Positions 5,201 to 59,820 of a DNA stretch of 64,000 nt are shown here, piece by piece (position 1 is the first letter of the stretch; the number at the start of each line of letters is the position of its first letter). Position numbers and translations under genes: made by a program. The notes beneath the pieces were generated by a model. The model was not told the DNA's origin and searched no databases. It saw only the letters and a list, made by a program, of their open reading frames with translations. This DNA comes from a virus: IMG/VR virus record IMGVR_UViG_3300022074_000005. One strand, given 5' to 3'.

Positions 5201-8200
5201 CTTTCAAGTAATGACAAGTTAGTGTAGTACTCTAAGTTTTGAATTCTTTTTTGTAGTTTACCAATATCTCTCATAGTAAACCTTTGAGTTTTAAATCTTT
5301 CGATTTCAACATCTGTAGGTCTAAATGTATAAGCAGGTATGAATAGTTTAGCTAGTTTCATAGCATTTTCTAATTCTTTAGGTTCAGTTGGAACTTCAGC
5401 TGAAGAACCTGTAATAACTTTAAAATCACCTTCTTGAGTTAAGAAAACTAAAGCTAATCTTGATAGATAAAATTCTAAATCTGCTGTTCCTAGAGTGTTT
5501 GGTTTTGGTGTATCTACTGTTGATGCACCTGTGCCATCAAATTGTCTATGAAAGAAATCAAACGAATTGCCTGTAATTGTATCTACAGAACCAATAGAAT
5601 CTGTTGCACCAGTAACGTTTTCACACGTTGGTCTAAAATCAACGACATCTGTTAATGGAAACTCACCAGTCGGTTCTGGTTCATCTGGGTCAACTCTTGT
5701 TGCTGTATATGTTGGAATATTACCATATCCCATTTGACCAGCGACATCTGAATATGAATCTACTGTAAAGAAAGAACCTGAAGAATGACTGAAGAAATCA
5801 AATACTACTGCTAGTCTTCCTCTAGGTTTTGATGCACCAGCTTTTAATTGTATTCTAGAAATATCATAAAGGTTATCTCTTTGACCTGTGTCTAGTAAAT
5901 AATTTGAAGTAATAATTTTAGAACCAGCTGTTACACTTGAAACTATAGCAGTTGCACCAGAGGACGCACCTGTAATTGTTTCACTTGCCTCAAAGTTTGC
6001 AGCTCCCACACCATCTTGTAAATAATATGTAATTGGTGATGTTGGATTAATAACTCTTGCTACTGCACCAGAAGTTCCACCAGTAATTTTTTCTCCTCTA
6101 ACAAAAGTACCATTGACTGTTGTTAAAGCAATTGTTGGTAATGATGCATCTGAACTTGTATCCTCAGAGTCAAACACAGCACCTAAAGTAAAAGCATCTG
6201 CTCGTCCTAGTGATATTGTATCATCTGTTGCTCTTGTTCCAAACGCACCTGTTGTTGCGCCAGCAACTTTAACAACTTTAGATAAGTTAGTTGTTTTTAA
6301 TCTAGCAGAGATAGATGTTTTTAATAGTGTTGCAGTTAATTTAACTTTAGCACCATTTCCAAAACTTGTATTATCTGATATTGTAATTGTAGCTGTACCT
6401 GTGCCAGAGATTGTTGACTCAACATCTACAATATCTCCTTGAGATGCACTTCCACCAGAACCTGCTGTTAAAACCGATAATGTATAATCGATATCTGTAT
6501 AAGATAAAAATGTTTCATTTGCACCAGCAGTAAATGATACAGCACCAGAAGAGTTTGTTGTTGCTATAAATTGTCTTCTAATTGTCATCTGCGTATCAGA
6601 CGAACCATTGTTATCCTCTGTCAATAATGTTTTAATTGTAGGTTTAGGTAATCTATATAATGCAATATTTTTTTCTGCTTGATTTAATTTACCAATCTTT
6701 TCAGATTCTAATGCAACTGTTGTTGAGTTATCTTCTTCAAGAACTATGTTATCATTTGCATCTGTAGATGAAGCATCCGTACCATCTAAAACTATTTGAC
6801 CATCAACACCTGTTGTTGTTGATTCTAATACAGTATCAGCAGTAAAGTCTTGACCACTGTCTGGGTCATCCATAAAGAAACTTCTTGTTTCTGAAAATAT
6901 GTGTGTAACAATATTTGATATTGTTAAATCTGCGTTAGATGAATTTTCTACAATCTGATCTGTTTCTGCACTATCAGATACTATAAGTTTTTCACCTGTA
7001 GTAAAAGTACCAGAAACATTTGTAAGTACAACTTGAGTACCACTCGTTAGTGTACCAAAAACAAAACCTGTTGCATTTGACGAAGCACCTTTAACTCTAA
7101 CTCCACCATTACTATGATTAGCAGTTAATGCTGAACTTGGGTTATCGTTTAATGTTAAGTATGTAAATGGTCTTATATCAAAAAGATATAATCTGAATAC
7201 TGCATCTGTATTTCCCATAGTACCAGACTCGTATTGTATTGTTCTTGCTCTTGCGACCCCTATTTGCGTACCTGAAGCTGTTCCTCTTGTTGACGTAACA
7301 TCATCAAATAGTTGAATTGTTTTGTATGCAGTTGTCTCACCAGAGATATCTGTTACATCTGGTTGACCATATACATTTGTTATCTTAACAAAGTTTCCTA
7401 ATTCTGCGTTTATTGAACCTGCGTTTACTGTATCAAATTGTCTTGACTTTTCTACATCTTTAAAAGTGATAGTTGGTTTTTCTAATTCATATCCTTTTAC
7501 ATATGCCTTACCTGGTGATATAGCTAATATAAATTTACCTTCATCTGCTGTTCCACCATCGCTAGTAGTATCACCAGAAGCATAAACACCTCTGAAACTT
7601 TGACCTTGATATCTGTTATCAAGCATTTCTCTAGCATCTAATTGAAAAGGTCTTACTGTATAGTCACCTGACTCGTCAAACGTTCTTCTTGCAAGTGTAT
7701 CACCTAATACTGAATATTCAGTTGGTCTTGCATCACTTTGAATTTCACCATTTTTTACTCTAGCAATTTCAACAAACTCATTGTCAGCTGTAGATGTTAA
7801 ATCTAAAGATGTTAAAGTTAAACTCATTTTTAATCTATGAGCACCTTTAGCTGCAAAGTTTGAAGCACCAGTTGCGTTATCTGTTAAAGATTCATCAACT
7901 TCTGGTGTAACTAATTCTTCGTTTAAACTTATACCTATTCTAGCTGATGCAGTTTGTGAATCATCTGATAATACAAGTGTTTGATCTGATAGTTGTACGA
8001 ATGTTCCTCTTATATAATAAACACCACCTGTTGTACTAACAGCTGTTCCTAATTGTGAAGCGCTTGTGTGAGTTGTTGCTGAATTAGTGTTTATTGCATA
8101 AGTTGTAGTGTGTGTAATAGATGTATCAGCGTAAATGTTTTCAGAGTTTTGAAATATAGTTGTCTCTAAATCTGAACCTGATGAAATATATCTTACGTAT

Positions 8201-8580
8201 AATAAAGGTTGTGTTGTCGAAGTTGCAGCTTTAAATCCTATGACTTTTGCTTTTACACCAGATGTTGCACCTACGATTGTAACAGGTGAGTCTTCGCTAT
8301 AATATTGTGATGGGTCAACTGTCTCTCCAGCGAAAGCTGAAGCAAGTTGTACTGAATAGTATTGTGTATTTACAGAAATACCACCAGGTATAACTACACT
8401 ACCTTCTTGAAAAACATGAGAACCAAATCTTTCAATTTGATTTTGTAGTATTGATTGTAGCTGTGTTAACTCTCTAGCCTGTACTGCGTAACCAGGTCTA
8501 AAAAGTATTCTATGAAAATTTTTGTTTTCTGCAAAATCATCATAATATGGTGCTACGTTTAGGTCAGTTTTTTGTGCCAT
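2215..8580 (-). CDS. Large virion structural protein (VrlC / DUF4815-like)
   Basis: N-terminus NVAPYYDDF...LFRPGYAVQARELTQLQSILQNQ; RRTFDESGDY; RFTMRDIG; DPLAQTF; C-terminal DFRAIALA; directly after gp8. Confidence 0.85.
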   Translation of the reverse strand: MAQKTDLNVAPYYDDFAENKNFHRILFRPGYAVQARELTQLQSILQNQIERFGSHVFQEGSVVIPGGISVNTQYYSVQLASAFAGETVDPSQYYSEDSPVTIVGATSGVKAKVIGFKAATSTTQPLLYVRYISSGSDLETTIFQNSENIYADTSITHTTTYAINTNSATTHTSASQLGTAVSTTGGVYYIRGTFVQLSDQTLVLSDDSQTASARIGISLNEELVTPEVDESLTDNATGASNFAAKGAHRLKMSLTLTSLDLTSTADNEFVEIARVKNGEIQSDARPTEYSVLGDTLARRTFDESGDYTVRPFQLDAREMLDNRYQGQSFRGVYASGDTTSDGGTADEGKFILAISPGKAYVKGYELEKPTITFKDVEKSRQFDTVNAGSINAELGNFVKITNVYGQPDVTDISGETTAYKTIQLFDDVTSTRGTASGTQIGVARARTIQYESGTMGNTDAVFRLYLFDIRPFTYLTLNDNPSSALTANHSNGGVRVKGASSNATGFVFGTLTSGTQVVLTNVSGTFTTGEKLIVSDSAETDQIVENSSNADLTISNIVTHIFSETRSFFMDDPDSGQDFTADTVLESTTTGVDGQIVLDGTDASSTDANDNIVLEEDNSTTVALESEKIGKLNQAEKNIALYRLPKPTIKTLLTEDNNGSSDTQMTIRRQFIATTNSSGAVSFTAGANETFLSYTDIDYTLSVLTAGSGGSASQGDIVDVESTISGTGTATITISDNTSFGNGAKVKLTATLLKTSISARLKTTNLSKVVKVAGATTGAFGTRATDDTISLGRADAFTLGAVFDSEDTSSDASLPTIALTTVNGTFVRGEKITGGTSGAVARVINPTSPITYYLQDGVGAANFEASETITGASSGATAIVSSVTAGSKIITSNYLLDTGQRDNLYDISRIQLKAGASKPRGRLAVVFDFFSHSSGSFFTVDSYSDVAGQMGYGNIPTYTATRVDPDEPEPTGEFPLTDVVDFRPTCENVTGATDSIGSVDTITGNSFDFFHRQFDGTGASTVDTPKPNTLGTADLEFYLSRLALVFLTQEGDFKVITGSSAEVPTEPKELENAMKLAKLFIPAYTFRPTDVEIERFKTQRFTMRDIGKLQKRIQNLEYYTNLSLLERDAESFEVTDANGLNRFKSGFVVDNFAGHRVGDVKNKDYSNAMDMENKELRPKCILRNATLTESVSTDANRTALGYQKTGPLITLPYSSDTLSENPYASRVEKVQPVITAQWVGNIDLDPQSDDWFETETAPDLIINVDGNFDAVRAANSNRLGTVWNSWETQWSGTIASRVQTSQQGNQVITRAIQTVRSNLKRSGINTQVVEQIDEESQGTRVISRALIPWVRPRNVTFKGQAFLPNTKVYVFFDGTAMAAYITPQSQSYTNVSTVAEGVQLVTDGNGNVEGTMRIPEYRFAGQTAVPKFKTGEVEFRITSSSTNIKTPVPVTAANTTYIAKGILETEQETIIATRNARVVQKSVTETTSRLSTSSRVINVQEIDQGRGDPPGPDPLAQTFLVEEEGGAFITELDLYFQTKDNDLPCWVEIRNVDNGYPGPKILPFGRKLLQASEINTSTTAATATTFTFDAPVYLKNGQEYCFVVRSDSLEPKIWISRMGETDIGGLRIVSKQPHLGVLFKSQNNRTWAASQSEDIKFTLRKAVFNTTAAGAVTLENNPIGQAITNEIGNTVYVNRLKSNPLIMTNGSTTLKIKHEDHGMYQTSNNVVVTGVSSGIETTLSATINDSATSLTLASNSGFGSGNITVKIGNEIITGSLSGTTLSSLTRGAGGSTASAHTASDKVELYEIFGVSLTEINKEHTSIGNIGTDYYTITLTTAPSISGGSTTAEIGGVAVYASENYRYELLKTSIATLELPETSVAGKLRNTTGRSPSGTETSFNTRTLANARAISLNENQRLPECNIVASQINETNELAGAKSFFLPLTLGSNNANISPVIDTDRLSAVLVANKVNNITDSSGVFPTTDYVTNEAPDGDQNAFIYITKKVALESPATALKVFFSAHKHNSATIKCLFKVLRSDDASDFDELGYTFFNTTGTTDTEVGSSLEDDDFQEYVFTSGVTDDGIGTPLPEFIQFAIKIVGQGTNAAEPIRIKDFRAIALAT

Positions 8581-8588
8581 ATTATTCC

Positions 8589-10082
8589 TTAAAACTCAAT
8601 AATTATCTTAACATCTTCAGTTTGATCTGATACCCTTTGAATTGGTTTTCTATTTTCAATATAAACTATATTACCACTATCTGGTTGCAACTCTGGGTTT
8701 GCATATCCACTTGTTAGTGTAACTGTATTTCCGTTTGCAAGTGTGACTGTTTCAGAACCAGTTGACGATGGTGTACCTACCGCATTTGTAGTTGCACCTG
8801 TAATAGAATTTGTACCACTAAATGCTGTAAAACTTTGTGTAGTTGTTGCTGTGCCGTAAGTAGAAAATCTTTCTTGTTGATAATACAATAATTTTCTTGT
8901 GGCATCCCACTCAACAACTCTACCTACTGCACCAGTTGTTGCTTGAGTGATTTGTTCATCAACATCAAAAGTTCCTGTGGCTGAAGAGAACTTAACAACA
9001 TTGGTTTGTCTAGCTGTAGTTGCAGACGCCACGGTAGTTGTACCATAATTGGTAGGGTCAACTACTATGCCAACTTGTCTAAAGTCATTTTGTACTGTAA
9101 AGTCATCACCTTCAGCTTGTGTTATAGTTGTATTTGCTATTACAAAATGACCACCTAATTCCTCTACTGCATCTTTACCATGGCCATCTTTTGGTGAGAT
9201 GATTATTCTTACATCTCCACCTGAACCTGAACCGATGTTTGCAGAACTTGTTAAAGCTGCATCTGAGAATACGTTTGTTAAAGAAACTTTTCCAAAAGTA
9301 TATGCAGCTCCACCTGCGTGTATTGTTGTATCTGTACCAGCAGTTAATCCAAAACTTGCGATTGAACCACCTGATACTGTAATTCTTATAATTGCACCAC
9401 TTGATGTTCCTTGACTTGTACCATCACCAAACACAGGTGCGTAGTATGTTCCGTCTGTATAACCTGAACCAGCAGTTATTTTAATTGATTCTATTTTGCC
9501 ATCTACTGCAGCTGCAGAAACAGTTGTATCTGTAGATACAGGTATGTAATCTGTAGTAATAAACTTTACAGCTTCAGACGCTGTGATTGTGTACATGTAT
9601 TTTATAATGTATCCGCCTGATGCGAATGGTGATGTACTTGTAGATGTTGGCTCGGAGCCTGAAAATGCAGCCCCAGCATTATTGTCAAGAACTTTATACA
9701 CATCTTTATTAGAAGTCATGAAATAAAATCTTGAACCATAAATTGAGGAAGCACCTGAAGCTGTAGTGTTCGAAGATGAAACTCTATCATCGTACATATC
9801 AAAGACTGTAGAATTGGCCCAGTTAACTCTAGGAAGTGCGAAAGAGATATCTGAACTTGTAATTTTTTTAGCCCCTAACATAGAATCCCATAGATAGAAT
9901 TCATTTGATATGGCATCGGCTGGCGTTGGTGGAGCTGTATCTGTACCACCTGAAGTACCAGTTGTGAAAGGCATTGGTTTGCCTAAGAATAAGTAATAAG
10001 TTGACGCAGCTGATTCACTAAAGGACTCGTGAAACTGATTTGCGTTATGTTGTCTAAATTTTTCTGTTATAATTGCTGTCAT
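8589..10082 (-). CDS. gp8: Baseplate wedge subunit gp8
   Basis: VYKVLDNN, YIIKYMYTI, NDFRQVGIVVDP and C-terminal YIENRKPI.R..DQTEDVKIIIEF; synteny gp6-gp7-gp8. Confidence 0.9.
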   Translation of the reverse strand: MTAIITEKFRQHNANQFHESFSESAASTYYLFLGKPMPFTTGTSGGTDTAPPTPADAISNEFYLWDSMLGAKKITSSDISFALPRVNWANSTVFDMYDDRVSSSNTTASGASSIYGSRFYFMTSNKDVYKVLDNNAGAAFSGSEPTSTSTSPFASGGYIIKYMYTITASEAVKFITTDYIPVSTDTTVSAAAVDGKIESIKITAGSGYTDGTYYAPVFGDGTSQGTSSGAIIRITVSGGSIASFGLTAGTDTTIHAGGAAYTFGKVSLTNVFSDAALTSSANIGSGSGGDVRIIISPKDGHGKDAVEELGGHFVIANTTITQAEGDDFTVQNDFRQVGIVVDPTNYGTTTVASATTARQTNVVKFSSATGTFDVDEQITQATTGAVGRVVEWDATRKLLYYQQERFSTYGTATTTQSFTAFSGTNSITGATTNAVGTPSSTGSETVTLANGNTVTLTSGYANPELQPDSGNIVYIENRKPIQRVSDQTEDVKIIIEF

Positions 10083-10101
10083 TGGTATACACTTCCTTTT
10101 G

Positions 10102-10118
10102 TATTTATATTATTTATA
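10102..10118 (-). promoter_or_regulatory. Tandem T4-type late promoters (two TATAAATA)
   Basis: tatttata at 10102-10109 and 10111-10118, upstream of gp8. Confidence 0.75.
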
Positions 10119-10123
10119 CGATA

Positions 10124-13100
10124 TTAAGAACTCCTTATCTCAATAACCGAAGATTTTACAACTGCTCTACTTCCTAATTGTATTACTCTTAACGGTATAT
10201 CTTCTTTTAATATTTCTGGTCCACTAGAGAAACGTAAACTTGCATGTGGTATTTGACCCTCACTAGCAATTAAAGTAGAATCTTCTAATAATATATGATC
10301 TATTTGTGCAGCTGCATCATCAACATCTCTTTCTGATAATAATCTAAACCCTGCGTCTGTTCCGCTACTATCAGTTCCGTCTAATATTAGACTATCAGTT
10401 GATACATCTTGACTTGCATCTTCTAGTAAAAATGCGTCTGCAAAATTCTTTTGTGTTGTTTTTTCATATTGTGCTCTAGCACCTGGTACCATTGTACTAT
10501 CTTCTAATAATAAAAACTGTTTATTAGATGTGGTTGAGAAAGCCTCTGCAATGATAACACCATCCTCTTCTAAAATAAATCTTTCATCACCAGAACCTGT
10601 TTTTTCTGATATAATAAAATCATCTTGATCTGTTACTTGACCTGATAATTCTCCACTTGTTATTAAGTGTCCGTCTAATTTTATGAAACCATCTATCTCT
10701 AATTTGATACCATCAAAGTCAGGTGCCGATGCATTATTAATATCTGAACTTCCATTATCCAAACCTCTGTTAGATAATAATTCATCTGCAACTATACTGT
10801 CTTCAAATATTATAAAACCAGAATTATCTTCTAATTCTAAAGGTGACACAGCATCAAATTCTAATATTACTTTATTACTAAATCTTAAACCTTGTACATC
10901 TATTAAGTCACTTGGTTGTCCTAGTATAATTCTATCTGGTCTAACTATATCAACAATTCGTAAATCTTCAAAAGCAGATATTGGAATTGAGTCATTTGTT
11001 TTCTGTGAGTCTTCTAATATCATTTTATCAAAGACAGAGTGTACTGTAGCTGCGTTAAATGTAAATGATGAGTCTTCCATTTTTAATCTACTTGTATCAC
11101 CAATACCTGTTCCACTTTCTAATATTATATTATCGCCTGCATCCGTACCACTTACTGCTGTTGCATTTAACACTATAAAAGAAATCACTGGTATTGGGTC
11201 TACACCATCTAGTCTTAATACTTCAGTTTCAGAACCCTCTAATTGTATTCCCTCACTATCAGGAAACATACCACCATTACCTACTGCACCACTAACAGTT
11301 CTCATAAAGTTTTGTGAAGCTCTTGCTGTTGCTTTTGATTGAATATTTTTTTGGAATAGAGGTATAAAATTAGTTTGAGCTTTATCACTAGGTGCTAAAG
11401 AAGTTTCTGCCATTATTCTTCCACCTGCACCAAATTGATCTATTGTACCATCTTCAAATAAGAAAGCATCACCTGCATCTGTAGATGAACCAGCAGTTGA
11501 GTTAATTACAATTTTATCATCTCTATGACCTAATCTACTTGATACTTGTACAGCTTGAGAAGTTCTTCTAAACAATTCATCAAACAATGTTGTAAGTACA
11601 GAACCAAGAATAGGTGAGAACTCAGAACCACCAGATGCTGTAATTGCATTTGATAAAAATGATGCAATACTAACTTTACCAAAAGGTGCAAACCCAGATG
11701 GGTGTACTGCTCTTCTTAACTCGTTAATGTATGTAGCGATTGATTGGCCGACTTGAACTTCATAAGAAAATTGTTGATAGTAGTAAGAGTCTTGAACACG
11801 AATCAAGTCCTCGCCAATCAACGATTCAATGTTTACATACTTACCGTCTGTAATTTGTTTTACTCCAGCACTTACCGTACCAGTAGCAATATCTGCTAAT
11901 AAAACTGTACCCGATGCACTTGCAGTTGATATTGTAACAGCTGCATCCTCAGAAAAATCAATCTTCTCTTGTAGTATTAAACTATCGCCAGCATTATTTG
12001 TGCCATCTGTAGAGTTTAGTGTAATAAAGTCTGCAGCATCAACACCTGTTTCATCTAATATTTTTCCACCATCGTCACTAGCTTCTAGTGTAATTAAATT
12101 ACCAAAATCTTCGTTCTTTAATTGATTACCATCTTCATCTAATATAAATGCTGTGCCTGTATCAATTAATGTATCGATTAATATTTTACTTCCAGCATCC
12201 GTTACTAATCCCTCTTGAGATTGTTCAGTTATAAACACACCAGAGTTATCCTCTAATGCTATTGCTAGTAAAGGATTAGCACCATTAACAGGTTCTGCTA
12301 ATATTTTAAATATGTTTGCACTTGTACCATCTAGTAATAAATCTTCTTGATTATCCCTTACAAAACTTTGTGGTGTATTAGTTTCTATAACTCCACCCAT
12401 ACCAGAATGATTGACACAATAATAATAAAGTGTAGGTGCATTTGCAGCTATTGTTATTTGAATGTATGCACCAGTAGTACCTGTTTGAATTGTAATAGGG
12501 GACTCAGTTACACCAGTTGTATAAGCTGTACCATCTGCATGTGTGCCATTTGGTGTAGTAGAAAATCTTAATTGATGTCTGTTTGTAGCTAAACTATCTC
12601 CTAAAGAACTATCTGATAAATCAAAGTAGTAAGTATTACCTTCAACTAATTTTAAACTTTTTTGTCTCTCATTATTAATTTCAAATACATTTGCAGTATC
12701 ATCAGCATTTCTAACTTTTTTAACAACAACATTTATTAATCTTGTCGCTGGTGTAGCAATACTTGTACCATCTAATATAATATTATCATTTGGTGTACCA
12801 ACTATATCTTGAACTTCTTCCATAAGAACATTATGACCTGCAAGTCCTCTTGTATCTTCTTGCACAAAAGGTGCGTTAAAAGTAGTTGCTTGTTCATGTC
12901 TTATTTTTATAATGTCTTCTAAAGTAATATCTAATTGTTGAGTAGTAGGGTTCCAAGCTTTTACTTCACCTGTATGAGATGTAAGAGTTTCACCTGCAAC
13001 AAACGAACCTGTAATATTTTTTAATATGAAGTGAGCTCTGAAACGCATGTCTGGTAAATCGCTTGCGTCATAATCAAAACCAGAGTCATTTACTTTTAAT

Positions 13101-53039: not shown

Positions 53040-53174
53040 TTATAGTCCTAATCTACGTCTTTTTTGTTTATTTAAAGATGATTTGTGATATCTTTTTTTC
53101 TTACTACCTATAGTTGTTTTCTTAGGTGCTGATTTTCTATAATCTTGAGTGTTGCCGTATAGTCCTTTTGCCAT
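53040..53174 (-). CDS. 44 aa highly basic late peptide (MAKGLYGNTQDYRKSAPKKTTIGSKKKRYHKSSLNKQKRRRLGL), not in the ORF track
   Basis: Translated by hand; TATAAATA at 53179-53186 directly upstream. Confidence 0.6.
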   Translation of the reverse strand: MAKGLYGNTQDYRKSAPKKTTIGSKKKRYHKSSLNKQKRRRLGL

Positions 53175-53181
53175 GACCTAT

Positions 53182-53280
53182 TTATATGAGATCAAAAGTA
53201 CCTAATACCATACAGACCAAAATATAACACATGTAAGCTAATATACAATATCCTATTATTTTTTCGTATATACTAAACAT
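53182..53280 (-). CDS. 32 aa TM peptide (MFSIYEKIIGYCILAYMCYILVCMVLGTFDLI), not in the ORF track
   Basis: Translated by hand; start overlaps the cyclase stop. Confidence 0.4.
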   Translation of the reverse strand: MFSIYEKIIGYCILAYMCYILVCMVLGTFDLI

Positions 53281-55111
53281 CGGGTTTGAAGATTGTAATC
53301 AATTCTTCTTTTCCTTTGACCTTTATCTTATCTACTTCTATTGATTTAATGTTCTCTAATTGTTCTTTTGTATATGATGAATATAAAGTAGGTGTAACTT
53401 TACCATTCTCGTCTTTGTAGTTCCTAGTTTGTGCCTCTAGTCTTGCGGCCAGATTAACTGCATCCCCAATAACAGAATAGTCTAGTCTCATCTCACTACC
53501 CATATTCCCAACTATACAAGTACCAGTATTAACACCAGAACCTATATTGATATCTGGTAATCCTTTTTCCTTAAACTCTTTCTTAATTCTATCTGTCTCT
53601 TCAGCACATTCAATAGATGTCTTGACTGCCATCTCTGCGTGATTAGGACAATCCAATGGTGCGTTCCAAAATGCCATGATACAATCACCCATGTATTTGT
53701 CTATCGTTCCACCATTCTTTAGTACTATCTTACTCATACGATTTAAATAATCGTTAATGACATTGACCAATCCCTCTGGGTCATCATTGTTCTTATAGTA
53801 TTCTGATATTGGTGTGAAACCTACAATGTCCATGAACAAGAAACTCATCTCTTTTCTTTCACCACCAAGTTTTAATTTACTAGGGTCTTTGACTAATATT
53901 GCTACTTGTCTAGGGTCTAGATACTTCTCAAACTGTTTTCTTATTTGTTGTTTTAATTTAAACTCTAATATAAATCTTAAAAACGTACTATGAAAAGCAA
54001 CTACTAAAAATGTAAGTAGTATCCATGTTACATCTACTAACATTAAGTTTTGAACAAAAAACATATTTGTATATACAGGTAATGTTACAGATACAAATAT
54101 AATTGCAAGTCCTATTATCCAATATGCTGAATATCTTACTAAAACGATCATAGCAATACCTACTATAAATGCAATTAGTAATTCATAAAATGCATCATAT
54201 CTTTTGATAGTTTCACCATCTAAAACAGTTTGTAGTGTGTTTGCTGATATTGTATAATCATATTGTTCACCAGTTGGTGTTGCAACTACACCACCTAATC
54301 CCTCTGCCGTCATTGCAATAATAACTGTGGTACCTGCAGCTTGTGAAAAATCATTACTAGCTGCTGATATAGTTTTAAACTTTTTGTTCCACCTAATCCA
54401 TATTCTAGCATTTGCATCTGTTTTGATTGTATCGAAACCAGGTACTCTCATTGCAATAACACCAAACTCATCTGCCTTAACTTGATAACTAGGGTCACCT
54501 ACTGCAACTCTTATTGTTTCAATCGCCATGTTAGGATATACTTCATCACCTATTTTCATTAATAATGGTACTCTTCTAACAACACCATCTATCTCTGGTG
54601 CTGTATTAATTACTCCTACACCATTAGCACATTCTGCTAGTTCTGGTAATGGACCAACCATTCCAGGCCATTCAAATAAAAATGATAATGGGTTTCCTAT
54701 CTTTGCAACTCCTCTTGGTACTGGGTTAGATGTTCTTTTTTGTGTTGTACCTGTTTGTGCTATGACAGTTCCATAAGTTAGTGTTTCACAAAATACTTTA
54801 TCACCATCAAATCTATCTGACTCTGAAAATAAGATAGGCATAACAATTATACCTGTTTGTGCTTGTCGTAAATCTATAATTAGTTTAGCAAGTGTTTCTC
54901 TAGGCCAAGGCCATTGACCATACTTCTCTATCGCTTGTTCGTCTATTGTTATGATTGTTATGTCTTGAGATTGCGACTTCTCTTCATTTGCTAGAAGATA
55001 ATCAAATGATTTAAGTCTTAGAGTTTCTTTAAATGATATATCTTGTAAACCTACGTATGTAAGAAAAAATAATGTTATAAATGCTGTAGTCCAATGTGTT
55101 AAAAATTTCAT
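53273..55111 (-). CDS. CHASE2-domain class III adenylate cyclase (start reassigned to MKFLTHW)
   Basis: CHASE2 motifs IDE......GQWPWPR and DGVVRR.PL; three TM helices; FMDIVGFT, IDKYMGD and DYSVIGDAVNLAARLE; TAATG overlap with the upstream stop. Confidence 0.92.
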   Translation of the reverse strand: MKFLTHWTTAFITLFFLTYVGLQDISFKETLRLKSFDYLLANEEKSQSQDITIITIDEQAIEKYGQWPWPRETLAKLIIDLRQAQTGIIVMPILFSESDRFDGDKVFCETLTYGTVIAQTGTTQKRTSNPVPRGVAKIGNPLSFLFEWPGMVGPLPELAECANGVGVINTAPEIDGVVRRVPLLMKIGDEVYPNMAIETIRVAVGDPSYQVKADEFGVIAMRVPGFDTIKTDANARIWIRWNKKFKTISAASNDFSQAAGTTVIIAMTAEGLGGVVATPTGEQYDYTISANTLQTVLDGETIKRYDAFYELLIAFIVGIAMIVLVRYSAYWIIGLAIIFVSVTLPVYTNMFFVQNLMLVDVTWILLTFLVVAFHSTFLRFILEFKLKQQIRKQFEKYLDPRQVAILVKDPSKLKLGGERKEMSFLFMDIVGFTPISEYYKNNDDPEGLVNVINDYLNRMSKIVLKNGGTIDKYMGDCIMAFWNAPLDCPNHAEMAVKTSIECAEETDRIKKEFKEKGLPDINIGSGVNTGTCIVGNMGSEMRLDYSVIGDAVNLAARLEAQTRNYKDENGKVTPTLYSSYTKEQLENIKSIEVDKIKVKGKEELITIFKPDV

Positions 55112-55461
55112 TATTGATTTACTGTCATAGTACAGTAAGCATGTCCACACCAAAAATTACCAGAGTAACTTTTATTATTACCTGATTGATTAATGTACAT
55201 AGATGAACCATTACTATTTCTGCCATCAACATCAATGTCAATGTTATTATTATTTCCAACTTGGTCTAAATCAATAATAAAACCATTCATACTTTGTATA
55301 TCAAAATCTATATCATTATTTTGACCATCTTGTAGAGTATTTAGAGTACCACCTGCTGATGTTGTAACAGTAATTGTTAAATCATTAGCGTTAGAATTAT
55401 GTAATAAAACCAATACAAATAATAAAGTTATGCTAATTAATTTGCTGAATAGTGATAACAT
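55111..55461 (-). CDS. Short curlin-like secreted protein (CsgB-like; start reassigned)
   Basis: Signal peptide; Q.G.NN repeats (QDGQNN, QVGNNN, QSGNN); GGAGGAG RBS. Confidence 0.65.
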   Translation of the reverse strand: MLSLFSKLISITLLFVLVLLHNSNANDLTITVTTSAGGTLNTLQDGQNNDIDFDIQSMNGFIIDLDQVGNNNNIDIDVDGRNSNGSSMYINQSGNNKSYSGNFWCGHAYCTMTVNQ

Positions 55462-56551
55462 TTTCTGCTCCTCCAAGTTCGAAATCGTATTGTTCAAACT
55501 CGCCTTGTACTATATTTAGGATATATCCATACTCTTTGTCTAGTCTTAATTCTATATATGAACCAGATGCATCTTCTCTAATCCATACCCATTGAGGGTC
55601 TTCGTCTAATATAATCACACCAGTTTCTGGGTTCTTTCCTAATGTTATGTCACCAGAAGTTTTTTTCTTGTCAAACTCTGATCTCATTTGTTTTGCTAGT
55701 TCTTTGTTTAATTGTTTTAGAATATCTACTAAAAAATTTTGTTCTAAGAAATCTATATCAAGACCTGTTGCAAATTGACTTTCGTCTTCCTCAAGATAAT
55801 CAACTTCTAAATCATCAAATTGTAAAAAGTCAATGTCTAATGCATCTGCAACTTCATTTAAACCTTCTTCATTTTGCATTTGTTCTATTGCAGCTGGTTT
55901 AGATATGATTAGTAAATTACCAATCATCTCTTCGTCTAAATCTAACATTACAGGTTTCAATGGTTTACTTGAAACCGTATCAACAACTGTGGCTTGAAAT
56001 GCTTGATTTAATATTACTTGACCAGCATCTGACTCAACACTAATCTCTCCAACAAAACAATTACCATTTGTATCACAACTTGGTAGTAATATAATTGTAG
56101 ATGAACCTATCTCATCTATTGTCATCGTAAAGTCTGTACCACGAACACCAATTGTAGCTGTTGGTGTTGTTATTAATACATCTGTCGCTGAGTTTTTTGC
56201 AATTTGACCTGAGGCATATCTTACTGTGCCTAGTTTTGCTTTTAATGAAAGTTTACCTTTTTTAGTATTTGGGTCATAAACAAATTCATCAATAAGAAGT
56301 TTAGAATGTTCAGTAACGTCAACTCTAGTATTATCGATAAATTCTATACCAACTTTGCCATTACCTGTTTTTACAGTATCATATGAAAATACATCTAAAT
56401 CTTTTTCTACAGTAATACCTTGATCGCCATCTTTTCTATCGATAGCTGCATTACCTTCGTATAAAGAAACTTGACCTATAGATGCAAGACTACTTTGTAA
56501 AGATATAAGGGTTAAGACTATGAACCCAAGTGTAAAACTTACGAGCCGCAT
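55433..56551 (-). CDS. FecR-domain secreted/periplasmic protein
   Basis: Signal peptide; D.V.T, F.D.T.V...S.L.ID...YDP and TPTA.IGVRGTDF motifs. Confidence 0.85.
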   Translation of the reverse strand: MRLVSFTLGFIVLTLISLQSSLASIGQVSLYEGNAAIDRKDGDQGITVEKDLDVFSYDTVKTGNGKVGIEFIDNTRVDVTEHSKLLIDEFVYDPNTKKGKLSLKAKLGTVRYASGQIAKNSATDVLITTPTATIGVRGTDFTMTIDEIGSSTIILLPSCDTNGNCFVGEISVESDAGQVILNQAFQATVVDTVSSKPLKPVMLDLDEEMIGNLLIISKPAAIEQMQNEEGLNEVADALDIDFLQFDDLEVDYLEEDESQFATGLDIDFLEQNFLVDILKQLNKELAKQMRSEFDKKKTSGDITLGKNPETGVIILDEDPQWVWIREDASGSYIELRLDKEYGYILNIVQGEFEQYDFELGGAENVITIQQIN

Positions 56552-56595
56552 ATATTACCATTCCTACAAATAATATAAATGTTAATGTACCCATA

Positions 56596-57279
56596 TTAGT
56601 CTCTCTGTATAATATCGATATTGTGGTTATCACCACTTGTTGTTAATGTTATCATATTATCGTATATACCTGATTGTGTAATATCTACGTCTGCAATAGA
56701 ACCTGTATGTGTGTGTATGTAAGTATGACCTATACTGTCACCATCTCCGTCTATATCAACCAAGAAATTATTTGTGTCACCGTTTACTGATAAAGTAAAG
56801 ATAACACTTGTACCATCTATCGTTGCAGCCACAACGTTTGAGTCTGAACCAGACGCACCTGATATGTTAATTGTAGCACCTGTTGCATCTGCTGTTTCTC
56901 CAACGTCTATGTCAATATCGTTAGATGAACCAACCCATACAATTGATGCTGTAACGTTAGCACACGATGAGTTAGACCCACCACTATCACATTTTAAATC
57001 AATATCGTTACTGTTACCAGTCGTGCTAAATGTACCTGTGTATGATGCACCATTAATATCAAAGGTTAATACGTTAGAGTTACCAATTTGATCAATGTTC
57101 ATATTTGTAGTAGCACCTGTAACAGTTGATGGTGTACCAGATGAACCAATTGTGTTATTCTGTCCGTCTTGTAAAACGTCAAAAGTCAAAGTGTTACCTG
57201 ACTGTGTAACATAAATGTCGTTAGCGTATGACGAAACTGTCATCAACATAAACATAACCAAAGTAAGTATTTTACTCAT
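56596..57279 (-). CDS. Curlin-like protein (CsgA-like)
   Basis: Signal peptide; repeats with Q/x-x-G-x-x-N and alternating beta pattern. Confidence 0.7.
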   Translation of the reverse strand: MSKILTLVMFMLMTVSSYANDIYVTQSGNTLTFDVLQDGQNNTIGSSGTPSTVTGATTNMNIDQIGNSNVLTFDINGASYTGTFSTTGNSNDIDLKCDSGGSNSSCANVTASIVWVGSSNDIDIDVGETADATGATINISGASGSDSNVVAATIDGTSVIFTLSVNGDTNNFLVDIDGDGDSIGHTYIHTHTGSIADVDITQSGIYDNMITLTTSGDNHNIDIIQRD

Positions 57280-58090
57280 GTCTTATTCCTTTGACGCCTT
57301 CCATTTTCCACAATTTTTTATTTACACCTTCGTAAATCATTTGTAGTACGGCGTGTTCTATTGTTGTTCTTATTGCATAATTAACAGGTTCATTTGTTGC
57401 TTGACCTGACTCAAATTCTAATGCCTTTGTACTCATATCTAAAAATCTGAATACATCACCACCTTTGCTATAACTAGCAATGGTCTTTGTCGCTGAAACA
57501 GATAATAATATTTCACCTGTTTGTACTGCAACAAGTCTTAACGAAACAGTTACTTGGTCTGTACGATATTGTTCGCTTATTCCTATTCCAAAATATCTTG
57601 CACCAACGCCACCACTTGCAACATTGCTGTCATATCCTACAATACCACCTTCTATAATTAATCCAGCAAACACCAATGGTTTTAATTGATTGTTTGCTTC
57701 TGTTTCGCCATCGTATAATTCTCTTGTTGATCTTATAAGTTGTCTTTCTTTAACTAGATTACTTAAACCTTTTCTCTCTACAACTTTAAACCAATCTCCA
57801 TTACTAACTGCTTTTAAAGCAGATATAACCCAAACATCTGGTCCTTGCGTAACTGCTGTTGACAGTTGAGAAAACTTTGGATTAGGTTTTCTCTGACCAG
57901 TTTGATCTGTAAACTCGTATACCGCAATTGTTATTTGCGGTTGATTATCTAAATCAGGTATCTCTCTTAACTTTTCAAGTGTTGTTGTTCCCTCAATAAA
58001 AGGTTCAGCACCATGTTTTATTTTATTAGATTGAGTTGACGCACAACCTGATAATATAAATCCTAATAGCAATACTAATAATAATCTCAT
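57272..58090 (-). CDS. csgG: Curli secretion channel CsgG
   Basis: Lipobox LSGC; AVY.F.DQTGQRK, STAVTQG, WF.VVER.GL.NL.KERQ.IR, EGGI.GYD, GG.GARY.GIG and D.VTVSLR.V motifs. Confidence 0.95.
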   Translation of the reverse strand: MRLLLVLLLGFILSGCASTQSNKIKHGAEPFIEGTTTLEKLREIPDLDNQPQITIAVYEFTDQTGQRKPNPKFSQLSTAVTQGPDVWVISALKAVSNGDWFKVVERKGLSNLVKERQLIRSTRELYDGETEANNQLKPLVFAGLIIEGGIVGYDSNVASGGVGARYFGIGISEQYRTDQVTVSLRLVAVQTGEILLSVSATKTIASYSKGGDVFRFLDMSTKALEFESGQATNEPVNYAIRTTIEHAVLQMIYEGVNKKLWKMEGVKGIRHE

Positions 58091-58096
58091 ACACCC

Positions 58097-58579
58097 TTAA
58101 AAGTTAAAATCACCTAATGGTACAGACATTGTAGTTACGGCACCATCTGGTGTTGTTATTGTCAAAGTAATAATCTCAGTAGTGCTATCTTTAACCCAAT
58201 ATATTGTTGACCCCTCAACAGTAGCTGTACCACTTGTTGGGCATGTTGTTGTACTACTGTCGCAAGTAGTACCAAACATGTTATCAACTAACTGTTTGGA
58301 TAAGTTAGCATATATTCTACTTTCAACGTTCTTAATAAACTTATTGATAGTAGTATTTTTCTCAATTCTCTCTGCTGCCGCAGCTGCAGATTTAGCATCA
58401 TCTTTTACTTGTTTCTCTCTATTGTACTGTAATTGTTCAATAGATAATACATGACTAGAATACCCATTACCACTAAATGACGGATTCTTAAATTCATGTA
58501 CCAATTCTGAAGCTGTGATTATGGAAGTCGAAAACACATAAAACAATAGGCCCATAAACACCATATTAAGTGTTTTCAT
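58097..58579 (-). CDS. csgF: Curli assembly protein CsgF
   Basis: Signal peptide then SELVHEFKNPSFSG (cf. CsgF F.NP.FGG); directly upstream of csgG. Confidence 0.85.
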   Translation of the reverse strand: MKTLNMVFMGLLFYVFSTSIITASELVHEFKNPSFSGNGYSSHVLSIEQLQYNREKQVKDDAKSAAAAAERIEKNTTINKFIKNVESRIYANLSKQLVDNMFGTTCDSSTTTCPTSGTATVEGSTIYWVKDSTTEIITLTITTPDGAVTTMSVPLGDFNF

Positions 58580-58606
58580 AGTACTATTATTTAGGAAAAT
58601 GGGTGA

Positions 58607-58855
58607 TTAATCTTTTTTCTTTTTTTGATTTTCTTTGATCTGTCTTGCCGTTTGTAACTTAGATCGTAGTCTAATTAAGTCATTATCTAGCATTCTAATT
58701 CTATCTAGTAATCCAATTAGTGCGACATTTGCCTCACTTAACTTCTTCTTGATATTTTCTGTAGTAAATCTGTATATGAAATATATAAAGTATCCCATAG
58801 CCACAGCTGCTAGTGTGGCAAATCCATATTGATTTAGTATTTCAACAACTGTCAT
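58607..58855 (-). CDS. Small membrane protein (TM plus coiled coil)
   Basis: GF...A...MGYFIY; LLDRIRMLDNDLIRL; paralog of 59522..59803. Confidence 0.6.
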   Translation of the reverse strand: MTVVEILNQYGFATLAAVAMGYFIYFIYRFTTENIKKKLSEANVALIGLLDRIRMLDNDLIRLRSKLQTARQIKENQKKKKD

Positions 58856-59067
58856 TATTCCATTATCAAGGCTTTGATTGTTAAAGAACCATCAATATTT
58901 GTTTCAAGCTCTGCTTTTGATTTTAAGCATTGATATCTAACACCTTGAGAATACTGCCTCTCTGCTTGTCTCTTTCCTTTTAAACATTCAGAAAGCGATG
59001 GTTGTATTCGGTGCTCCTTGATCTCTGAATTGACGATCATTAATAAAGCTACTACTACCTCTATCAT
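58855..59067 (-). CDS. Small hypothetical protein
   Basis: SLSECLK.KR...C motif; coupled to both neighbours. Confidence 0.6.
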   Translation of the reverse strand: MIEVVVALLMIVNSEIKEHRIQPSLSECLKGKRQAERQYSQGVRYQCLKSKAELETNIDGSLTIKALIME

Positions 59068-59522
59068 TAATTTCCGTTTCCGTTTTTGTAAACTATTTCT
59101 CTATCAGCATCTTTTAACTCTTCAATATCAGTCATCATCTTGTCAACTTGTTTTCTTAAAAACTCTATGTTAATTTTATTGTTTGCCATGTCCTCGATAT
59201 GTTTCTCTATCTTCTCGGTGGTCTTGTAAAGGTCCTCGATCAACATGAACTGCTCTCCGTCAGCTGGCAATGAACCCATTTCACCCCTTGGCCATTTAAT
59301 TCTAAACTCTGTATTTTTTGTTAAGTCAGTTTCTAATCTCTCAACGTGTGCGTTCAAATCTTTTTCTGCTAGTTGAGATTTAGTCTCCAACATTGTGATA
59401 CGCTCTAACACACCAAAGTAAGCCCACACTCCTACACCCACAGCTCCGATTATGGCAAGCATGTTTCTGACTGGCATACTGATGGCGGTATTATCTGATA
59501 TGTCTAATCTATTTTTACTCAT
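59067..59522 (-). CDS. Membrane-anchored coiled-coil protein
   Basis: ISMP.RN, TM helix, LPAD.EQFMLIE motif. Confidence 0.6.
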   Translation of the reverse strand: MSKNRLDISDNTAISMPVRNMLAIIGAVGVGVWAYFGVLERITMLETKSQLAEKDLNAHVERLETDLTKNTEFRIKWPRGEMGSLPADGEQFMLIEDLYKTTEKIEKHIEDMANNKINIEFLRKQVDKMMTDIEELKDADREIVYKNGNGN

Positions 59523-59803
59523 TAATCTTTCCTCGCATCTTTCTTACCATCTGCTCTAGCAATCCTATCTTCATCTTGTTTTAAATCTAAAGCTTCTGAT
59601 ATTTGTACGTCTAGTTTTATCATGTCGTTATTCATAGTCTTTATTCTATTATCTAGACCCATGATTATTCCATGAATACTATTGACTTGACCAATTACAG
59701 ATTCTAATATGTATTTGAGGATGATGTATATGAAAACACCCATTACAGTAGCTGATGCTACAGGTAATCCAAACTCGACTAGAAGTGTAAAAAACAAATC
59801 CAT
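59522..59803 (-). CDS. Small membrane protein (TM plus coiled coil)
   Basis: LDNRIKTMNNDMIKLD; C-terminal RIARADGK.DAR.D. Confidence 0.6.
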   Translation of the reverse strand: MDLFFTLLVEFGLPVASATVMGVFIYIILKYILESVIGQVNSIHGIIMGLDNRIKTMNNDMIKLDVQISEALDLKQDEDRIARADGKKDARKD

Positions 59804-59812
59804 AATATAAGT

Positions 59813-59820
59813 TATTTATA
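59813..59820 (-). promoter_or_regulatory. T4-type late promoter heading the membrane/curli cluster
   Basis: TATAAATA 9 bp upstream of the 59803 start. Confidence 0.7.

Follow-up and report, generated by a model that had tools for sequence, protein, structure and literature searches.

A pelagiphage curli secretion module that may link fibre or pore state to cAMP through a FecR-domain protein and a CHASE2 adenylate cyclase

The window analysed here, a 64,000-nucleotide stretch of DNA that judging from its sequence comes from a SAR11-type marine phage, an HTVC008M-like pelagimyophage, carries a curli-type gene module on its minus strand at positions 53182–59820. Our preferred reading, which we hold with modest confidence, is that this is a pelagiphage type VIII secretion module of alphaproteobacterial origin in which the state of a fibre or pore is passed via a FecR-domain protein and a CHASE2 cyclase to cAMP. 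Since the gene set of this pelagiphage group was published in 2022, the finding is largely known. Specifically, Wittmers et al. described an HK–CsgF–CsgG–CsgA/B–FecR–CsgA/B–AC set in HTVC023P-type podophages and in pelagimyophages including HTVC008M, with the same genes, order and host group as in the window, and already interpreted it as a complete fibre system plus regulators; transcripts of the curli genes have also been reported in ocean metatranscriptomes (PMC9599517). Relative to that module, the window adds a two-gene insertion (tm2/tm3) and a short second curlin of 116 aa. The text of that paper makes no mention of CHASE2, NsrA, PA14 or Caulobacter, and the present analysis extends it with the CHASE2 sensor of the cyclase, the recurrent bacterial FecR–CHASE2 pairing and its NsrA–CyaK precedent, a Caulobacteraceae csgF-to-cyclase module, the curlin-like tail of curli-linked FecR proteins, the lack of support for the 'HK' label, and the conserved position of a TATAAATA motif upstream of the leading small gene and of csgF.

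With respect to organization, the co-directional and mostly overlapping run given in the preliminary description was recovered in full, with all eleven minus-strand ORFs in place and tight gene junctions. The order is four small membrane/coiled-coil genes, csgF, csgG, curlin 1, the FecR gene, curlin 2 and the CHASE2 cyclase, followed by a 32-aa ORF. Overlaps of 8 nt and 29 nt are seen at csgG/curlin 1 and FecR/curlin 2, respectively, and the curlin 2 stop and cyclase start share the sequence TAATG. Nucleotide identity between the module and HTVC008M is approximately 76%. The statement that csgE, csgC, csgD, an ECF sigma factor and a TonB receptor are missing from the window holds for the module ORFs, which define the scope of our check and among which none of these was found.

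Pfam domain matches bore out the gene identities proposed earlier for csgF, csgG, the FecR gene and the CHASE2 cyclase. The csgF gene (58097–58579, minus strand) encodes 160 aa matching PF10614 (E 2.2e-13) and phrog_35372, and csgG (57272–58090, minus strand) encodes a 272-aa outer-membrane lipoprotein channel (PF03783, E 6.9e-55) with an LSGC lipobox, although its score against the NCBIfam CsgG model, at 199.6 bits, lies under the equivalog cut-off of 505. Together, CsgG and CsgF would form a channel in the host outer membrane, through which two Sec-exported curlin-repeat proteins, one conserved and one hypervariable, would pass and polymerise as a beta-solenoid fibre.

The evidence for these two subunits comes from orthologues, profiles and predicted fold, because the window's own proteins fall below the Pfam Curlin_rpt threshold (E 8.5); it is on that basis that the earlier call of two curlin-like genes stands. 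The conserved subunit, curlin 1 (227 aa; 56596–57279, minus strand), is 79% identical to an HTVC008M 'curlin-associated protein' and belongs to a family with invariant Q-x-G-x-x-N motifs, 7 of whose 33 orthologues match Curlin_rpt. Its family profile has a sole match in the PDB, the curlin protein 8c50, and the protein itself weakly matches the CsgB model (E 7e-5). A beta-solenoid is confidently predicted for curlin 1 (pLDDT 86, pTM 0.82), and the best match to this model among 48,161 PDB chains is the CsgA subunit 8c50_A (Z 19.2, though at an rmsd of 8.7 Å), only slightly ahead of unrelated beta-helices (Z 17.6–16.0); Foldseek returned no significant match for the curlin model against the PDB. 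Failure of the curlin-like proteins to form a solenoid amyloid had been named in advance as grounds for rejecting the fibre reading, and the in silico model of curlin 1 gave no such refutation. Curlin 2 (116 aa from the ATG at 55461; 55111–55461, minus strand) is tied to the curlin 1 family by profile–profile comparison (probability 96.9%, E 1.4e-10) and weakly matches the CsgA model (E 3.7e-4). Its slot is hypervariable, with lengths in relatives between 340 and 2983 nt; in some of them the subunit bears a PA14 domain, and the window has the short form.

Between the two curlins lies the gene for a 372-aa periplasmic FecR-domain protein (55433–56551, minus strand; PF04773, E 3e-9, residues 58–148). 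The protein consists of a signal-peptide-like N-terminus, a FecR/PupR-like beta domain, an acidic helical linker and a small C-terminal beta domain, and its AlphaFold model (pLDDT 88) matches the PupR signalling domain 6ovk_R over 135 residues (Z 15.6, rmsd 2.6). No cytoplasmic anti-sigma part was found in it. The chain ends in ITIQQIN, and the corresponding tail motif, h-x-h-x-Q, occurs in 61 of 62 curli-linked FecR proteins and in none of 66 others, counts that are not independent as the sequences are related. The same motif is present in 32 of 33 curlin 1 and 10 of 10 curlin 2 orthologues, while the FecR C-terminal domain as a whole shows no resemblance to the curlin family when profiles are compared (hhalign probability 3%). 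This curlin-like tail, common to the curli-linked FecR proteins, counts toward their integration with the curli system.

The cyclase (612 aa from the ATG at 55111; 53273–55111, minus strand) was assigned to class III from Pfam matches, PDB sequence matches and catalytic residues. It combines CHASE2 (PF05226, 2.5e-39) and Guanylate_cyc (PF00211, 3.4e-19) domains, matches CyaB, Cya2 and photoactivated adenylate cyclases in the PDB, and is 81% identical to the HTVC008M protein and 47% to that of Melnitz. An inactive enzyme would have spoken against the preliminary description; in this in silico comparison D428, K472, D476, R542, N553 and R557 (numbered from ATG 55111) are all intact. Alignments to CyaB (3r5g) and others place Ser546 at the position occupied by Asp in class IIIa and Thr in class IIIb. 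In the mechanism that we favour, the FecR-domain protein, with its curlin-type strand-like tail, would partner the CHASE2 domain of this inner-membrane cyclase, such that the pore's or fibre's state, or that of something attached to the fibre, is converted to cAMP inside the infected cell. The direction of this signalling, cAMP as its product and whatever the phage gains from it are inferred.

Linkage of the FecR and cyclase genes to csgFG, as previously proposed, was found to be general among relatives. HTVC008M, the Methylophilales phage Melnitz and 80 viral contigs share this module order. In all 44 related viral loci that could be tested, csgG is followed by FecR, and the cyclase comes next in 22 of 23. 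A Caulobacteraceae chromosome carries csgF–csgG–curlin–curlin–FecR–cyclase flanked by housekeeping genes. Beyond curli loci, a FecR-domain protein beside a CHASE2 cyclase is a recurrent bacterial pairing, usually accompanied by a TPR/Slam-like outer-membrane gene: among 67 distant FecR loci in bacteria, 21 lack CsgG and have a full-length CHASE2 cyclase no more than a few kb away, 19 of these 21 also have the TPR/Slam-like gene, and a Ruegeria plasmid carries the pair. In the alphaproteobacterium Sinorhizobium meliloti, outer-membrane NsrA is required for signalling via the CHASE2 cyclases CyaK and CyaD1/D2, with cAMP as the output (PMC7529298, PMC13001267). NsrA has an N-terminal FecR domain, with which the window's domain aligns at E 9e-8, followed by TPRs and an outer-membrane barrel, and nsrA abuts cyaK, the gene of a class III cyclase. 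NsrA–CyaK is a fused form of the FecR–CHASE2 pairing and a real precedent for outer-membrane-to-cAMP signalling. It differs from the phage system in that FecR, TPRs and barrel reside in one 1200-aa protein, CsgG, CsgF and curlin are lacking, the signal is the external protein uL2 and the cAMP reader is Clr. The earlier reading of a fibre plus trans-envelope signalling is supported in part, with this precedent and no in silico refutation on its side; what had already been published in 2022 is the gene set and its interpretation as a fibre system with regulators.

The existence of many bacterial FecR–CHASE2 pairs without curli genes also suits an alternative, possible though unlikely, in which the phage makes fibres without coupling the FecR protein and cyclase to them or to the pore; these two would instead form a separate envelope or environment sensor that was inherited alongside the curli genes and reprograms host metabolism via cAMP. 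FecR and AC were treated as regulators by Wittmers et al. (PMC9599517), and one related locus (L070) has FecR and no cyclase within 6 kb. Set against this are the interleaved curlin–FecR–curlin–cyclase order, kept in a Caulobacteraceae chromosome and across two families of phages (PMC9599517), and the restriction of the curlin-like C-terminal tail to curli-linked FecR proteins.

Of the four small genes at the head of the module (all minus strand), tm1 (93 aa; 59522–59803; phrog_18771, 3.6e-34) encodes a membrane/coiled-coil protein with one hydrophobic helix and has a paralogue in tm4 (82 aa; 58607–58855; phrog_18771). Among isolate phages, tm1 occurs only in HTVC008M and Melnitz, both curli-bearing. 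It is the 'HK' of Wittmers et al. (2022), a label that received no support in our Pfam and NCBIfam searches, where tm1 had no match. Between the paralogues lie tm2 (151 aa; 59067–59522; phrog_20984), with an N-terminal TM helix and a coiled coil, and tm3 (70 aa; 58855–59067; phrog_24646). This segment (58855–59522) is missing in all 80 related viral contigs, HTVC008M and Melnitz, and thus represents a two-gene insertion specific to the window's phage. Homologues of tm2 are found in 45 Pelagibacter podophage records, and in HTVC019P the tm2/tm3 pair sits directly upstream of maturase B and lysozyme. By comparison with the T7 gene order, this position in the T7-like pelagiphages corresponds to that of the T7 spanins.

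The presence of such a pair within the module, together with the lack of CsgE and an endolysin 1.8 kb past the cyclase in one related contig (L088), lends some colour to an improbable proposal in which CsgG and CsgF act only as a pore, a pinholin- or secretin-like lysis timer, and no amyloid fibre is formed (Buchholz et al. 2022). That proposal arose with Melnitz (MZ577097), which infects OM43 and shares the window's csgF-to-cyclase order; neither cytograms nor TEM revealed any clumping in Melnitz infections (PMC9004378). This result speaks for the pore-only proposal and, under those culture conditions, weighs against the earlier idea that fibres could aggregate infected cells with new hosts. 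However, the lysis-timing pore was proposed on the assumption that csgA/B were missing (PMC9004378), whereas the Melnitz GenBank record itself names a FecR protein, two curlin-repeat proteins and a cyclase, and two curlin-repeat proteins with Sec signals adjoin csgG in every testable relative, one of them with a predicted CsgA-like solenoid fold. The tm2/tm3 pair, moreover, is missing from all other curli loci. A channel that imports a nutrient or cofactor (an iron complex, for instance) sensed by the FecR protein, in the style of ferric citrate signalling, is very improbable: the FecR name and published suggestions of an open pore (PMC7029224, PMC9599517) favour it, but the module lacks a TonB-dependent transducer, ECF sigma factor and anti-sigma domain, FecR domains are widespread outside iron systems (NsrA and LysM–FecR proteins, for example), and the curlins are left unexplained.

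Returning to the fibre-and-signalling module, its parts can be compared with several known systems. It shares with csgBAC–csgDEFG of E. coli and Salmonella a CsgG lipoprotein channel, CsgF, and Sec-exported Q-x-G-x-x-N subunits with a predicted beta-solenoid, and differs in lacking CsgE, CsgC and CsgD, in the Cys pair of its subunits, in subunit scores of about 21–23 bits against CsgA/CsgB equivalog cut-offs of 160–165, and in housing a FecR protein and cyclase within the operon. With FecA–FecR–FecI and PupB–PupR it has in common the periplasmic FecR/PupR-type beta domain and, as proposed here, an outer-membrane-to-inner-membrane relay, but a signal peptide replaces the cytoplasmic anti-sigma domain and TM helix, and the output would be a cyclase rather than a sigma factor. 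The biofilm-linked 'BiofilmReg' operon of Burkholderia likewise sets the gene for a secreted FecR-domain protein beside a CHASE2 sensor (PMC5192318), in this case a LysM–FecR protein with a CHASE2 histidine kinase and response regulator output, and no secretion pore.

In terms of expression, two T4-type late promoters would drive the small membrane genes and the csgF-through-cyclase segment late in infection. The late-promoter-like motif TATAAATA (59813–59820, minus strand) lies 9 nt upstream of the first ATG, that of tm1, and a degenerate copy, CCTAAATA (58588–58595, minus strand), lies 8 nt upstream of csgF; no exact TATAAATA was found upstream of csgF in the window, which counts against our preferred explanation. 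The late promoter reported ahead of the run is accordingly present as a motif, yet the window total of 13 copies is no excess over the 11.8 expected by chance, and it is position in relatives that distinguishes it: TATAAATA precedes the first small gene by no more than 60 nt in 46 of 76 related loci and stands before csgF in 73 of 77, compared with a background rate of 0.02 per 60 nt, and HTVC008M has the exact motif at the csgF position. At the opposite end of the module, a 32-aa hydrophobic ORF (53182–53280, minus strand), of uncertain status as a gene, overlaps the cyclase stop by 8 nt; its only tblastn matches are in L003 and L004, the closest two of the relatives whose sequence continues past the cyclase.

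With respect to gene content, the run outlined in the preliminary description at 53182–59820 was borne out by Pfam and PHROGs assignments as eleven co-directional minus-strand ORFs, the junctions of which are tight or overlapping, with a TAATG common to the end of curlin 2 and the start of the cyclase gene. Two paralogous small membrane/coiled-coil proteins of phrog_18771, tm1 and tm4 (93 and 82 aa), bracket the products of tm2 and tm3 (151 and 70 aa). CsgF (PF10614, E 2.2e-13, 50.9 bits against a cut-off of 25.8) adjoins CsgG (PF03783, E 6.9e-55, 186 bits against a cut-off of 20.8), which carries the lipobox LSGC. The run also encodes two secreted proteins of 227 aa (curlin 1, 56596–57279) and 116 aa (curlin 2, 55111–55461), a 372-aa FecR protein with a signal-peptide-like start (55433–56551; PF04773, E 3e-9), a 612-aa membrane cyclase (53273–55111) with CHASE2 (E 2.5e-39) and class III cyclase (E 3.4e-19) domains, and a hydrophobic 32-aa ORF. 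The module CsgG scores 199.6 on the NCBIfam CsgG model, for which the equivalog cut-off is 505, and is thus a family member and not the enterobacterial equivalog. No Pfam or NCBIfam match to csgE, csgC or csgD was obtained among the module ORFs scanned (all save the 32-aa ORF); these genes are also missing from alphaproteobacterial curli loci (PMC9599517) and are therefore not family-defining.

This module is already in the literature, and what we add here is modest, new and testable. At the DNA level the region is 76% identical to Pelagibacter phage HTVC008M across 80% of its length and more remotely similar to Methylophilales phage Melnitz; the csgF-to-cyclase order is identical in all three, and the FecR-domain protein, two curlin-repeat proteins and the cyclase are already named in the Melnitz GenBank record. 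Zaragoza-Solas et al. (2020) described the csgF and csgG genes of pelagimyophages, for which they put forward 'sibling capture' (PMC7029224), and Buchholz et al. (2022) proposed a lysis-timing pore and saw no clumping (PMC9004378). Wittmers et al. (2022) reported the full set from podophages and myophages, namely 'HK', CsgF, CsgG, CsgA/B, FecR, a second CsgA/B and adenylate cyclase, demonstrated its alphaproteobacterial affinity, and found it at 65 of 65 GOV2.0 stations and as transcripts in metatranscriptomes; that paper makes no mention of NsrA, CHASE, PA14 or Caulobacter (PMC9599517). Because the set had been described by these authors and others, the initial observation and most of its reading restate known work. 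The further proposal that the genes amount to a full fibre-forming apparatus equipped with its own sensor and cyclase gains in silico support and a genetically studied analogue, NsrA–CyaK, from the results below, and its function remains a prediction.

The linkage of the FecR and cyclase genes to csgFG held in relatives. Specifically, scanning viral contigs with the window CsgG yielded 80 loci, onto which the window proteins were mapped by tblastn; among loci whose sequence continues for at least 2.2 kb past csgG, all 44 have the FecR gene, and of the 23 that continue for at least 3 kb past FecR, 22 have the cyclase. Gene order is constant, save in a few loci with one small membrane gene between csgF and csgG. 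The spacing between FecR and cyclase in these tblastn-mapped loci ranges from 340 to 2983 nt, and in the window it accommodates one small gene. This slot holds either a short curlin of 111–127 aa, the window type, or a long form of 441–497 aa, sometimes plus extra genes, and all forms end in a C-terminal Cys pair and a strand terminating in Q. The long form of HTVC008M consists of a PA14 domain followed by three Curlin_rpt matches. Given these features, the hypervariable slot gene looks like a swappable fibre subunit. Slot ORFs were catalogued at window 55111–55461, at L001:5838–7163 and across L003–L082 (phage and viral loci), and some slots also hold a 247-aa secreted protein or small hydrophobic ORFs.

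Assignment of the two secreted proteins as curlins required several lines of evidence. The Pfam Curlin_rpt model (PF07012) scores curlin 1 and curlin 2 alike at E 8.5 and 6.9 bits, below its cut-off of 20.7, and its threshold is reached by both Melnitz proteins, the HTVC008M long form and 7 of 33 curlin 1 orthologues. The NCBIfam models for CsgB (E 7e-5) and CsgA (E 3.7e-4) were matched weakly, far under their cut-offs, and phmmer of curlin 1 against the PDB returned nothing relevant. Curlin 1 is 79% identical to the 'curlin-associated protein' of HTVC008M, Q-x-G-x-x-N motifs are invariant in the curlin family alignment, and the sole match of a family profile in the PDB was the curlin protein 8c50 (E 0.021). 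The AlphaFold model of curlin 1, built from 33 sequences, is an all-beta stack of strand–turn–strand units (pLDDT 86, pTM 0.82). Foldseek of this model against the PDB produced no match at E <= 0.001; in an exhaustive VIA-align comparison with 48,161 chains, Pontibacter CsgA (8c50_A) ranked first, with Z 19.2 at an rmsd of 8.7 over 195 residues, and other beta-helices came next at Z 16–17.6. Since other beta-helices rank next, the fold class is firm and kinship with CsgA also depends on the sequence evidence. The short curlin 2 family matched the curlin 1 family in profile–profile comparison (probability 96.9%, E 1.4e-10). Taken together, we accept curlin 1 and curlin 2 as divergent, Sec-exported curlin-repeat subunits, of which curlin 1 is predicted from sequence and model to adopt a CsgA-like beta-solenoid; the suggested beta-solenoid fold of a curlin-like protein was thus upheld as a prediction in the case of curlin 1.

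The FecR protein was modelled with a pLDDT of 88. A hydrophobic, signal-like segment of 20–25 residues is followed by a beta domain at approximately residues 22–224, then by a helical linker of acidic character and a second beta domain of six strands (303–370). The first beta domain superposes on the periplasmic signalling domain of PupR (6ovk_R; Z 15.6, 135 residues, rmsd 2.6) and, in the same VIA-align comparison, on the anti-sigma factor BDI_1681 (4m0n, Z 14.2). An N-terminal cytoplasmic anti-sigma domain followed by one TM helix was not found in the protein, and with the beta domain starting at residues 22–26 no cytoplasmic domain would fit before it; lacking the cytoplasmic domain, the protein is not a FecR-type anti-sigma factor. 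Among the module ORFs, Pfam and NCBIfam also detected no ECF sigma factor or TonB-dependent transducer. The family is very common in metagenomes, the scored candidates forming more than 7,000 clusters at a 90% identity level. Structure 5ix9, a 'cell surface anchoring domain' of 76 residues, was considered as a match to the C-terminal domain and dropped, as VIA-align places it on residues 22–118, where it superposes with Z 11.1 over 74 residues (rmsd 2.1, 24% identity).

The FecR protein resembles the curlins at its extreme C-terminus, which reads ITIQQIN. When the last eight residues were scored for the motif hydrophobic-x-hydrophobic-x-Q, 61 of the 62 curli-linked FecR proteins whose C-terminus is complete (Caulobacteraceae members included) were positive, as against 0 of 66 FecR-like proteins encoded at loci that lack curli genes; curlin 1 orthologues carry the motif in 32 of 33 cases and curlin 2 orthologues in 10 of 10. 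These counts do not represent independent events. Extension of this likeness to the whole C-terminal domain as a curlin repeat was rejected, hhalign against the curlin family giving a probability of 3%, and we therefore confine the claim to the terminal tail motif. At the level of sequence, the distribution of the motif suggests that curli-linked FecR proteins have a curli-specific contact.

The cyclase, which reads as 612 aa from the ATG at 55111, has an N-terminal TM helix, a periplasmic CHASE2 domain, TM helices and a class III cyclase domain (on the 626-aa ORF, PF05226 covers residues 32–332 and PF00211 residues 434–621, with a hydrophobic block at 305–384). Class III adenylate cyclases of solved structure align with it, among them Pseudomonas CyaB (3r5g, E 1.6e-30), and the catalytic residues singled out in the preliminary description are intact in this alignment: the metal-binding Asp residues D428 and D476, the substrate Lys K472 and the transition-state residues N553 and R557, with R542 also present. 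The second specificity position is occupied by Ser546 where class IIIb enzymes have Thr, so that nucleotide specificity is a prediction. We know of no ligand for the CHASE2 domain.

We explored the pairing of FecR and CHASE2 proteins in bacteria. Species-representative genomes were scanned with a 13-sequence FecR alignment, a subset of a 71-sequence set that was itself too diverse for a genome scan, and 79 loci were recovered. Ten of the 12 loci with the closest FecR matches also carry csgG, curlin and/or cyclase matches; of the other two, one has FecR and curlin matches, and the other, a fragment of 1.6 kb, matches FecR alone. Those of the closest loci in which the small membrane genes are also present resemble phage contigs that were binned into MAGs; in L088, for example, PHROGs identified a T4-type clamp loader, ligase and endolysin, marking it as a T4-like phage contig. 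A further 56 window ORFs found almost no tblastn matches in the 'MAG' loci. L088 is binned as Luteolibacter, and its endolysin gene (L088:15599–16375) lies about 1.8 kb past the curli-linked cyclase.

Two Caulobacteraceae contigs (L093 and L091) have the order csgF–csgG–curlin–curlin–FecR–cyclase and lack the small genes, including the phrog_18771 pair. In the L093 MAG the module occupies 7074–13094 of an 82.6-kb contig and is flanked by genes for methylmalonyl-CoA mutase, acyl-CoA dehydrogenase, an amidohydrolase and a TetR regulator. These housekeeping flanks place the csgF-to-cyclase module, FecR included, on a bacterial chromosome, and FecR and the cyclase therefore belong to a cellular curli locus and are no phage addition.

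The remaining 67 loci extend the pairing beyond curli. A full-length CHASE2 cyclase lies within a few kb of FecR in 21 of them, none with csgG, and 19 of these 21 also encode a TPR protein with a Slam-like (SlipAM) outer-membrane part; they derive from Alphaproteobacteria, Deltaproteobacteria/Myxococcota, Omnitrophota and one spirochaete. Loci that carry this conserved third neighbour, which occurs in several bacterial phyla, include L113:5608–11503 and L144:5789–10678. By tblastn with the L113 and L144 proteins, the TPR/Slam-like barrel is absent from the phage and viral loci L001–L082, and no such domain was found in the module ORFs of the window. The FecR–CHASE2 pair also stands side by side on a Ruegeria plasmid, and in a Burkholderia biofilm operon a LysM–FecR protein adjoins a CHASE2 histidine kinase (PMC5192318).

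A genetically tested counterpart comes from Sinorhizobium meliloti, where the outer-membrane protein NsrA is needed for perception via the CHASE2 cyclases CyaK and CyaD1/D2, with a rise in cAMP (PMC7529298, PMC13001267). On pSymB (L164:2373–7924), nsrA abuts cyaK. According to Pfam, NsrA (1200 aa) has a FecR domain at its N-terminus (E 2e-15), then TPRs and after them the barrel, and the FecR domain of the window protein aligns to the NsrA N-terminus with E 9e-8; we found no mention of the NsrA FecR domain in those parts of the S. meliloti signalling literature that we examined. With FecR, TPRs and barrel combined in one protein beside cyaK, NsrA–CyaK represents a fused version of the three-gene arrangement. 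It provides one case, backed by genetic tests, in which an outer-membrane component acts together with a FecR domain and a cyclase of the CHASE2 type. From position, we infer that CsgG/CsgF may take the role of the NsrA or Slam-like barrel.

These observations can be joined in a speculative scheme, to which we assign a low probability, whereby the FecR protein would link the fibre or pore to CHASE2 and thereby to cAMP. The curlin-like C-terminal strand of FecR would either bind to the fibre, to CsgF or to CsgG, or thread into the pore, and the FecR domain would contact the CHASE2 domain, such that an infected SAR11 cell would make cAMP according to what the phage-built fibre touches. More generally, CHASE2 input would come via FecR-domain partners on outer-membrane devices, with NsrA barrels, Slam-like barrels and CsgG pores as candidates, instead of small molecules. 

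Since the hosts lack curli genes, these phages would give infected cells a new surface structure and a new second-messenger input, which bears on aggregation, phage spread, superinfection and carbon export. What is added is a testable frame in which a FecR protein and a CHASE2 cyclase form a recurrent bacterial sensor pair tied to outer-membrane devices. This frame has one genetically tested example in NsrA–CyaK, could help to assign a mode of input to CHASE2, and would explain the retention of a cyclase by a phage inside a fibre operon.

In terms of expression, the T4-type late-promoter-like motif TATAAATA occurs 13 times in the window, no more often than the 11.8 expected by chance. Among related loci, 46 of 76 have it no more than 60 nt ahead of the first small gene and 73 of 77 have it 5–11 nt ahead of csgF, against a background of 0.02 per 60 nt; in none of the loci compared does it precede the second small gene, csgG, curlin 1 or FecR. 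In HTVC008M the motif stands before csgF and also before an oxygenase gene situated ahead of the small genes. The window has an exact first copy, and its csgF copy reads CCTAAATA at the same distance. Because the position of the motif is conserved, and by analogy with T4 biology, late transcription of the module can reasonably be inferred; our literature search found no infection transcriptome for HTVC008M. A second exact TATAAATA (window 53040–53186, minus strand) falls across the stop codon of the 32-aa ORF, 4 nt ahead of a very basic 44-aa ORF. Similar small basic ORFs, with the motif PRKKGQPAGSKKH, occur in the variable slot of several related loci.

The small membrane genes have been annotated as a sensor histidine kinase ('HK', PMC9599517). 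We reject this assignment, as their products carry no HisKA or HATPase_c domain and consist, at 82–93 aa, of one TM helix and a coiled coil. The small genes gave no Pfam match at E <= 0.1 and no NCBIfam match at E <= 0.01, and in the protein atlas the phrog_18771 proteins fall in viral hypothetical clusters, with no named cluster among them. Among isolate phages, phrog_18771 is confined to HTVC008M and Melnitz, both of which bear curli genes. The tm2/tm3 genes (58855–59522, minus strand) form a two-gene insertion that splits the phrog_18771 pair and is missing from 80 of 80 related curli loci. Homologues of tm2 and tm3 were found in 45 Pelagibacter podophage records, and in the T7-like phage HTVC019P the pair lies just upstream of maturase B and lysozyme, the position at which T7 has its spanin genes. 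As a lead, tm2, with its N-terminal TM helix and coiled coil, looks like a possible inner-membrane spanin.
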